Shown here piece by piece: positions 31,620 to 31,846 of a stretch of DNA of 64,000 bases. The notes under the pieces are model-generated. The model worked only from the letters and a program-made list of their open reading frames with translations, ran no database searches and was not told where the DNA came from. How positions within the stretch are numbered: position 1 is the first letter of the stretch; each line of letters opens with the position of its first letter. This stretch comes from Desulfitobacteriia bacterium (GTDB lineage Bacteria > Bacillota > Desulfitobacteriia > Desulfitobacteriales > Syntrophobotulaceae), in assembly GCA_050949905.1 (NCBI GenBank), contig JBMNGP010000038.1, forward strand, positions 10-64,009, read 5' to 3'. Both the position numbers and the translations under genes were made by a program.

Positions 31620-31696
31620 CGGGGTATAGCGCAGCTTGGTAGCGCGCCTGCCTTGGGAGCAGGAGGCCGGGGGTTCAAATCCCTTTGCCCCGACCA
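31620..31696 (+). tRNA. tRNA-Pro (anticodon TGG), CCA encoded
   Basis: It folds into a cloverleaf with acceptor CGGGGTA/TGCCCCG, anticodon arm CCTGC-CTTGGGA-GCAGG and T-loop TTCAAAT. The T-stem GGGGG/CCCTT has two G-T pairs. Confidence 0.85.
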
Positions 31697-31846
31697 TTTC
31701 CTAAGATTAGGAAGGGATTTGAACGGGCGTTAAGAAAATGCGCCCTATGGAAGCATTTTTAGCCCCGGCGTGATAGCCGCTTAAGCGGCGGAGCAAATCC
31801 CTTTGCCCCGACCATTTCCTAAGATTAGGAAGGGATTTGAACGGGC
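31676..31846 (+). repeat. Direct duplication (53 bp, 118-bp period) of the tRNA-Pro 3' end plus trailer
   Basis: CAAATCCCTTTGCCCCGACCATTTCCTAAGATTAGGAAGGGATTTGAACGGGC occurs at 31676-31728 and again at 31794-31846. Confidence 0.95.

Follow-up and report, generated by a model that had tools for sequence, protein, structure and literature searches.

The tyrT-tyrV operon of Escherichia coli carries one repeat unit between tyrT and tyrV and a further 3.14 units of 178 nt after tyrV. Each unit contains a 22-nt, 86%-complementary inverted copy of the T-arm and acceptor strand of tRNA-Tyr, a GC-rich core, and a restatement of the last 19 nt of the tRNA. The rttR annotation corresponds to exactly one unit that ends at the restated CCA, and the Rfam consensus of the RtT RNA (RF00391) closes with a helix of the inverted copy and the restated end, followed by CACCACCA. 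Processing of the rttR RNA from a repeat unit of the tyrT operon is reported in a passage of PMC3318445 that cites Bosl & Kersten 1991, and again in 10.1101/2024.07.17.603846. For four decades, the tyrT repeats and the RtT RNA have been an isolated curiosity without clear function or origin. Here we describe short repeat units directly downstream of the tRNA-Pro and tRNA-His genes in a 64,000-nt stretch of DNA (hereafter the window; assembly GCA_050949905.1, contig JBMNGP010000038.1, positions 10 to 64,009) from a Desulfitobacteriia bacterium. They belong to a new, un-annotated, lineage-specific family for which the E. coli repeats are a known architectural precedent.

At the Pro locus (Table 1), the final 21 nt of tRNA-Pro (31676-31696, CAAATCCCTTTGCCCCGACCA), starting from T-loop nucleotide C56, are part of an exact 53-bp repeat (31676-31728 and 31794-31846) that joins these 21 nt to 32 nt of trailer, in full agreement with a first-pass annotation of the window. 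Allowing three mismatches, the repeat reaches back to 31668 and 31786, respectively (61 nt, 95%). The segment AAGGGATTTGAAC, found at 31712-31724 and 31830-31842, is the perfect reverse complement of tRNA-Pro GTTCAAATCCCTT. The same annotation had pointed to a CCTA-AGAT-TAGG hairpin, an inverted T-arm, GTGATAGCCGCTTAAGCGGCGGAG and the motif CCTATGG(A/G)AG common to the Pro and His spacers, all of which are present. On the tRNA strand, each unit begins with a variable trailer, followed by tRNA positions 53 to 65-70 in inverted orientation (hereafter invT), a core of ~70 nt, and the tRNA end from position 56 or 57 to the CCA. The units are ~100-160 nt in size, and the trailers at operon ends carry a terminator-like hairpin. 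The downstream copy of the 53-bp repeat is more than a restated tRNA end: what follows this end is a trailer, an inverted arm and the first 4 nt of the core, which together represent a truncated second unit. Dehalobacter sp. DCM (locus L023 of our comparison) has the same layout. The 53-bp Pro duplication is thus best read as a tandem amplification followed by truncation of the second unit.

In both full units behind tRNA-His, invT is a perfect inverted copy, 18 nt in length, of tRNA-His positions 53-70 (T-loop, T-stem and acceptor strand), and the restated end begins at G57, one base later than in the Pro unit, position 56 being G instead of C. Local alignment of the Pro spacer against the His spacer gave a score of 38, compared to 14.2 ± 2.4 (maximum 29) for 2000 dinucleotide shuffles and 12.7 ± 2.3 (maximum 26) for 2956 random segments of the window. 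The two inserts therefore form one family, as the first reading of the sequence had proposed. Within the window, CCTATGG(A/G)AG occurs exactly only at 31744, 32260 and 32417. The CCTA/TAGG hairpin lies outside the design shared by the His and Pro units, since it lacks conservation in other genomes: the trailers at L004, L023 and L024 are all unlike the Pro trailer of the window.

Beyond what had been noticed in the window, folding and alignment of the units revealed that the inverted arm pairs with the restated end and closes a conserved three-way junction. Helix P1, formed by invT and the restated end, is 10-15 bp long, beyond which 6-11 nt of the restated end stay single-stranded up to the CCA. 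The long hairpin P2 contains an A-rich internal loop, carries the apical loop G(A/C)CCUAUGG(A/G)A, and is followed by the almost invariant single-stranded junction GGCGTGATAGC, the short hairpin P3, and GGAG before the restated end. A covariance model, termed R1, was built from 15 non-identical units, across which 93.8% of the 480 cells are paired. Double-sided changes occur in 14 of the 34 pairs, compared to 6.7 ± 1.4 in shuffles, and the observed value was reached in none of the 500 shuffles; in a control with the partners slid by 1-3 columns, only 38-50% of the cells paired. P1 is 97% paired, with seven covarying pairs. P3 varies by unit (GCCGC/GCGGC, GCGGC/GCCGC or GCCCC/GGGGC), and in subtype “B” units it is a hairpin with tandem G.A pairs and the loop GAGA, GAAA or AGA. 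The units form much more stable folds than their shuffles, with z values of -5.6 to -6.0. The + strand folds better in 14 of the 15 units, the helix mismatches are mainly G.A, and GNRA or GAA loops are frequent; folding energy and G.A content thus weakly assign the fold to the + strand, the counts of G:U and A:C (2 vs 3) being uninformative on this point. On Pro unit 1, R1 matches 31710-31814 with 93.1 bits.

In the Peptococcaceae metagenome-assembled genome (MAG) GCA_012517475.1 (L024, 7585-7730 and 7947-8120), the apical half of P2 is duplicated in the Pro unit, and an insert of ~60 nt, rich in GC, is found in the A-rich internal loop of P2 in the His unit. Both units are otherwise intact, which indicates that P2 acts as a variable arm. 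A small open reading frame (ORF) in the core (ATGCGCCCTATGGAAGCA...) was rejected as a coding sequence, as its frame shifts between units, its start codon is lost in W_His and L018, and its changes are stem-compensatory. A hammerhead-like identity, considered for CUGAGAG/GUGAUAG plus stems, was also rejected: the invariant GAAA and the cleavage-site strands were not found by eye, and Rfam gave no match.

R1 detected 23 full units and two remnants at 11 loci in at least nine genomes. Orthologous Pro-Arg-His loci were reached via homologues of RNase PH, in addition to one pattern scan of 185,579 species genomes; by the RNase PH beside the operon, the window falls among uncultured Peptococcaceae/Desulfitobacteriia, close to Dehalobacter. 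R1-positive genomes are the window genome, two metagenome relatives (L004/L005 and L018), the Peptococcaceae MAG GCA_012517475.1, Dehalobacter sp. 4CP, Ca. D. alkaniphilus, Dehalobacter sp. DCM, Ca. Dichloromethanomonas elyunquensis, a Gracilibacter MAG and Desulfitobacterium dichloroeliminans, whose strain LMG P-21439 (CP003344.1) has two His units. All R1 units lie directly 3' of a tRNA gene and on its strand, at ten loci for tRNA-His, five for tRNA-Pro, and one each for tRNA-Leu(TAG) and tRNA-Leu(GAG), the last of which sits inside an array of 15 tRNAs. The Pro-Arg-His operon of Desulfosporosinus sp. OT has no unit. Four of the nine matches in the species-genome scan are tRNA-free and come from unrelated, non-Firmicute phyla, and a pattern scan of metagenomes yielded only three matches, all tRNA-free; these two sets are attributed to chance, since no tRNA lies nearby and R1 does not recognise them. 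Neither blastn of a unit against phage and plasmid collections nor two pattern scans of viral contigs gave a match. Against the 4227 covariance models of Rfam 15, only tRNA and group II intron models exceeded the gathering threshold, and at E<=10 only sub-threshold miRNA and CRISPR-repeat models were added, which fit generic hairpins and include nothing relevant.

The cores do not group by tRNA type, as exemplified by the Pro core of L004, which is 97% identical to the His core of Dehalobacter sp. 4CP (L006). Between genera, the core is 91-97% conserved, in contrast to the trailers, and all units, at four tRNA species and in at least nine genomes, have an identical invT/core junction. Plain tandem duplication or replication slippage at each tRNA locus, without a common element or function, agrees with the near identity of units within an array and with their arbitrary ends. 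However, it produces neither homologous cores behind different tRNAs nor inverted arms, and it leaves the conservation across genera unexplained. The same core behind four tRNA species makes simple slippage inadequate, as had been argued from the window, and this extremely improbable explanation is already refuted as a full account; it survives only for changes in copy number.

Duplication of a tRNA 3' end is described as the normal signature of integration, with the T-loop as one class of sublocation, in a section of PMC9897764 that cites Williams 2002. The units might thus be decayed attL/attR scars of integrase islands or prophages, their Pro-His likeness stemming from related phages, and weak integrase fragments are indeed located near tRNA-His (L020) and tRNA-Leu (L019). 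These fragments lie only outside the arrays; between the repeats, an interval of just 82-136 nt, no integrase gene or remnant, cargo or ORF was found. The identical invT/core junction at four tRNA species, the compensatory helix changes in a core that is conserved between genera while the trailers are not, and the lack of similar sequences in phage and plasmid records also speak against such scars. We regard them as a very improbable origin; that decayed integrase islands could undo the link between the Pro and His inserts, as the first-pass annotation had allowed, was not borne out.

Comparison with the E. coli tyrT/tyrV locus revealed the same architecture, for which reason the family is read as RtT-like. 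In both cases, the units immediately follow a tRNA gene on its 3' side, share its strand and operon, restate the tRNA 3' end with its CCA, and occur in tandem. They also share the order of parts, namely a trailer, an imperfect inverted copy of the T-arm and acceptor strand, a GC-rich core with several hairpins, and a restated end from the T-loop to the CCA, as well as the closing helix of the inverted copy and the restated end, which leaves a single-stranded CCA tail. Nevertheless, the two differ in several details. The host tRNAs are His, Pro and Leu here, compared to Tyr in E. coli; the restated end starts at position 56 or 57 here but at 58 in E. coli; and the inverted arm spans positions 53-70 as opposed to ~49-70. 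In addition, the core of the present family is a three-way junction, and the family occurs at several tRNA species with transfer between them, which to our knowledge has not been described for RtT. RF00391 (gathering threshold 45 bits) gave no match even at E<=10 on the window segment 31600-32540 or on L022 7640-8080, whereas the E. coli units score 133-138 bits, and R1 gave no match on the E. coli tyrT-tyrV locus. Core-to-core alignments with RtT were marginal: the best was equalled by 1-5 of 500 shuffles, among 14 comparisons of GA/GC-rich sequence.

Two further observations concern the E. coli locus itself. In E. coli K-12 (L025, 1286300-1287800), a short direct copy of the T-stem and T-loop, AAGGTTCGA, comes immediately after the inverted T-arm copy, and the two form a local palindrome. 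Moreover, the tyrT-rttR region showed raised coverage in exonuclease-enriched “mobilome” DNA under stress in a 2024 preprint (10.1101/2024.07.17.603846), which might reflect excised repeat circles or nucleic-acid hybrids.

The existence of a sequence-unrelated Firmicutes family of the same design makes this architecture a recurring class, defined by a tRNA end that is restated behind its own inverted copy and closes a conserved fold. The several host tRNAs, the matching of the arms to the host, the presence or absence of units at orthologous sites and the transfer as a block go beyond what RtT has or was examined for. They raise the question whether such units are processed RNAs with a borrowed tRNA terminus or miniature recombination modules that land on tRNA genes. 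On the practical side, R1 is usable for annotation, and the units account for broken assemblies and partial tRNA calls at the loci that they occupy. In a near-identical strain (L001; RNase PH 99%), the contig stops within tRNA-Pro, at 7366, which is consistent with repeat units breaking short-read assemblies here.

Where the host tRNA differs between genomes, both arms of the unit differ along with it. The acceptor strand of tRNA-His reads CACTATCC in L002, CTTCATCC in L004 and CCTCATTC in L007, and the corresponding Pro strand reads CTCTG (in L004) or CTTTG; the arms follow in each case. The earlier claim that the variable parts match their own tRNA thus extends to genomes with different tRNA sequences (L002 and L004 for His, L004 for Pro). 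In all units whose two trailers differ, the direct repeat covers positions 56/57-76 plus 0-3 nt. The occupied tRNAs are only those with A(A/G)TCCC or GAGTCCC at positions 57-63.

Filled and empty sites were both found among orthologous loci, a comparison that had been suggested from the window. The Pro site is filled in five loci and empty in six, and the empty site of L002 keeps a short invT-like stretch. The window, two Dehalobacter genomes and L019 have an empty Leu(TAG) site; in MAG GCA_012517475.1 (L012), this site is filled. In this MAG, the sequence past the restated end is the native Leu trailer (score 35 against the window trailer; shuffles 13.9 ± 2.2), and the trailer between the tRNA and invT is a terminator hairpin of the Dehalobacter His-locus type (48 vs 13.3 ± 2.5). 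Trailer, invT and core were therefore inserted as a block, with 21-24 nt of the Leu tRNA end repeated on either side. Hence the unit, trailer included, has moved between tRNA genes. The tRNA-His and tRNA-Leu(TAG) of this MAG differ at only one of the 18 positions in 53-70. Of the target-adapted miniature element proposed in the first-pass annotation, the movement as a block stands, on the evidence of the Leu(TAG) site in its filled and empty states and of the His-type trailer; no transposase or integrase is linked to the units, and the adaptation mechanism found no support. Furthermore, the invT of the Leu(GAG) unit (L013) fits tRNA-Leu(TAG) at 17 of 18 positions but its own neighbour at 15 of 18, and its restated end is cut to 13 nt, which implies that arms are sometimes carried along from the donor rather than re-templated.

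Tandem units within one array are 96-100% identical, and the arrays stop at arbitrary points, a pattern characteristic of unequal recombination of the tRNA end with its copies. The arrays contain 2.3 His units and 1.45 Pro units in the window, 3.6 Pro units in L020 and two His units in L022. In L020 (Ca. Dichloromethanomonas; 12384-13438), a 1.7-kb insertion between the Pro unit array and tRNA-Arg holds five small tandem ORFs (38-70 aa), which are glycine-rich, have repeated C-terminal segments in common and look bacteriocin-like; the final Pro unit is truncated at this insertion.

Taken as RtT-like modules of tRNA operons that spread by recombination, the units would be explained as follows, a reading to which we give about an even chance. 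They would be co-transcribed from the tRNA operon promoter, which is the sole promoter-like match on the + strand of 31400-32700; a separate promoter for the units was not found in this region. By analogy to RtT, for which alone excision as a small stable RNA is known from experiment, the tRNA-type 3' terminus held by P1 might allow the tRNA-processing machinery to excise the units as small stable RNAs, with a possible function as RNA. Copy number would shift by unequal recombination between the tRNA end and the restated copies, generating tandem arrays, truncated last units and empty sites. Now and then, recombination inside the tRNA-end repeat would copy a unit together with its trailer to a tRNA gene whose T-loop/T-stem sequence is identical (TTCAARTCCC). 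Gene conversion could then homogenise the direct copy to the resident tRNA, whereas invT would catch up more slowly, by selection on P1 or by templated correction.

Several points weigh against this reading. Homology to the E. coli RtT repeats is not demonstrable by RF00391, R1 or core alignments, so that the units are filed as RtT-like in architecture and not as members of RF00391. A terminator-like hairpin precedes most His units and is strong in L022, L018 and L004, so that little transcription from the tRNA promoter may reach the core. Retargeting by the proposed route would involve a chimeric tRNA as an intermediate or additional conversion steps. The inverted-repeat covariation fits RNA and folded single-stranded DNA alike, and P3 loops of the GCGAAGC type are also classic stable DNA mini-hairpins. 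Finally, invT complements the real tRNA over more bases, GTT at 53-55 included, than the restated copy, which means that selection on P1 alone is insufficient.

This longer match would be expected from an antisense or decoy switch acting in cis, in which invT pairs with 18 nt (53-70) of the precursor tRNA in competition with the restated end and thereby affects how the host tRNA folds, matures at its 3' end or is turned over. In line with such a switch, invT tracks the tRNA sequence, and minimum free energy (MFE) folds of a tRNA plus one unit prefer the tRNA:invT pairing to the cloverleaf, although MFE folds disregard the co-transcriptional folding of the tRNA. The switch explains neither the conserved covarying core nor the arrays, the units behind strong terminators and the decayed invT of L020 His, L012 and L013. 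Altogether, we consider it quite improbable.

The main rival explanation treats the units as integrative DNA modules that are non-autonomous. The unit itself, or a circle or single strand of unit length, would essentially be an attachment site, in which invT and the restated end of one strand form a duplex resembling the target tRNA gene from the T-loop to the acceptor; a recombinase supplied in trans would swap strands in the T-loop, and the element would bring its own tRNA end and terminator, so that the displaced native end becomes the restated copy. Re-integration would build arrays, and invT would be the arm that matches the target. Folded sites of this kind are represented by the attP(+) of the CTX phage and the attC of integrons, in which inverted site copies flank a spacer of ~70-90 nt and one strand folds into the recombination substrate; there, too, integration regenerates the target and forms arrays. 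The likeness to the forked-hairpin attP of CTX and to attC is pure analogy, however, in that the present units were found without a recombinase, target the T-arm of a tRNA instead of dif or attI, and carry no genes.

The geometry of the direct repeat (position 56/57 to the CCA, +0-3 nt) equals the att block of T-loop-class integrases and thus agrees with such a module. As in the att duplications of tyrosine integrases aimed at the T-loop and in their CIME-like derivatives without integrase, the direct repeat runs from the T-loop to the tRNA 3' end, a functional tRNA is kept, the native trailer is displaced downstream and units accrete in tandem. By contrast, only ~100-160 nt separate the repeats here, and an extra inverted copy of the target and a conserved covarying core are present. 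Also in keeping with a DNA module, the terminator-bearing trailer travels with the unit, upstream terminators are tolerated, as expected if transcription is unneeded, and tandem arrays are common. The donor-type invT of L013, the jump from tRNA-His to tRNA-Leu(TAG) with its single difference in 53-70, and the restriction to tRNAs with ..A(A/G)TCCC or GAGTCCC at 57-63 point in the same direction, as do the GCGAAGC or CGCAG-type mini-hairpins often held by P3 and the hot spot of mobile DNA downstream of tRNA-His (group II intron, IS200, integrase fragments). On the other hand, no recombinase gene is consistently located near the units, and phage, plasmid and viral collections contain no similar sequence. 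An element of 100-160 nt has no known route to single-stranded copies, and a target tRNA that received a foreign 3' end by integration in its T-loop would be non-functional until corrected. Moreover, units inside operons (Pro, L013) are certainly transcribed. On balance, a DNA module seems possible but rather unlikely.

Similarity to miniature inverted-repeat transposable elements (MITEs) and to repetitive extragenic palindromes and their mosaics (REP/BIME) is limited to short, non-coding, structured and repeated sequences with inverted termini. In the present family, the termini copy the adjacent tRNA and vary by site, the units are strictly 3' of tRNAs, and copies per genome are apparently few. 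Identical terminal inverted repeats and a fixed target-site duplication, as in MITEs, were not found in the units: the arms vary with the host tRNA, no constant duplication is seen, and the left border of the units is variable trailer sequence. It is conceivable, though unlikely, that the units represent a new kind of non-autonomous element that targets tRNA genes, its target being set by nucleic-acid mimicry or pairing, of which RtT would be a distant or convergent example. In that case, a recombinase acting in trans would insert the module at the T-loop of whichever tRNA gene fits the arm, and would thereby restore the tRNA.

Table 1. Positions of the tRNA genes, repeat units and unit parts in the window
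Feature	Position	Strand	Remarks
Promoter-like site of the Pro-Arg-His tRNA operon	31573..31601	+	TTGACT-17-TATACT
tRNA-Pro(TGG), host of the Pro unit	31620-31696	+	ARAGORN + Rfam
Pro unit 1, trailer	31697..31711	+	contains the CCTA-AGAT-TAGG hairpin
Pro unit 1, invT	31712..31724	+	reverse complement of tRNA-Pro 53-65; 5' strand of P1 plus junction bases GAAC
Pro unit 1, core	31725..31793	+	P2 hairpin, junction, P3 hairpin, GGAG
Pro unit 1, P2 hairpin	31725-31765	+	loop GCCCTATGGAA
Pro unit 1, junction	31766-31775	+	CGGCGTGATA
Pro unit 1, P3 hairpin	31776-31789	+	GCCGC-TTAA-GCGGC; GGAG at 31790-31793
Pro unit 1, restated tRNA-Pro end	31794..31814	+	positions 56-76 including CCA; 3' strand of P1 plus 11-nt tail
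Pro unit 2, truncated	31815..31846	+	trailer, invT (31830-31842) and first 4 nt of the core (GGGC); unrelated sequence after
tRNA-Arg(TCT)	31901-31977		ARAGORN + Rfam
tRNA-His(GTG), host of the His units	32097..32173	+	ARAGORN + Rfam
His unit 1, 157 nt	32174..32330	+	R1 118.3 bits
His unit 1, parts			terminator-like hairpin 32188-32209; invT 32221-32238; core 32239-32310; restated end 32311-32330
His unit 2, 157 nt	32331..32487	+	1 mismatch vs unit 1
His unit 2, parts			hairpin 32345-32366; invT 32378-32395; core 32396-32467; restated end 32468-32487
His unit 3, start only	32488..32531	+	trailer with hairpin 32502-32523; ends at / interrupted by group II intron
tRNA-Leu(TAG), empty site	43915..43999	+	

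In all compared genomes, the region between tRNA-His and the conserved IclR gene downstream of it is a variable hot spot. In the window, a group II intron (32532-~34405) is inserted right behind the third His-trailer hairpin and its U-rich tail (...AGCTATTTATAT|GTACGCC); it has Rfam D1-D4 matches at 32616-32786 and 32827-32913, and a reverse transcriptase/maturase ORF at 32938-34347 (RVT_1 + GIIM). Class C group II introns insert behind terminator-like stem-loops. In two Dehalobacter genomes, genes of IS200-type transposases (Y1_Tnp) with a left-end hairpin are located ~100-200 nt downstream of the His unit (L006 4609-5127, - strand, Y1_Tnp E=3e-42; L011 ~6900-7070, - strand). A tie of the units to the group II intron or to the Dehalobacter IS200 was rejected, as only some genomes have these elements and they lie outside the units. 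The weak integrase fragment of L019 is located specifically near tRNA-Leu(TAG).

In the spacer between tRNA-Arg and tRNA-His (window 31978-32012; L004 7928-7965; L007 7166-7195), a T-loop-like motif, GAGGTTAGAGGTTCGATGTTCGAGGTTCGAAG, forms short tandem repeats. Though tRNA-Arg never bears a unit, this motif is kept across genomes, and it could be a unit remnant or another sort of tRNA-derived repeat. Upstream of the tRNA operon promoter, between it and rdgB (window 31381-31488), are three 16-nt tandem repeats (TAAAATATTAAGCTAG-like) and two repeats of 24-26 nt (CTTTTAGTTGGAGAATAGTTTAGA).

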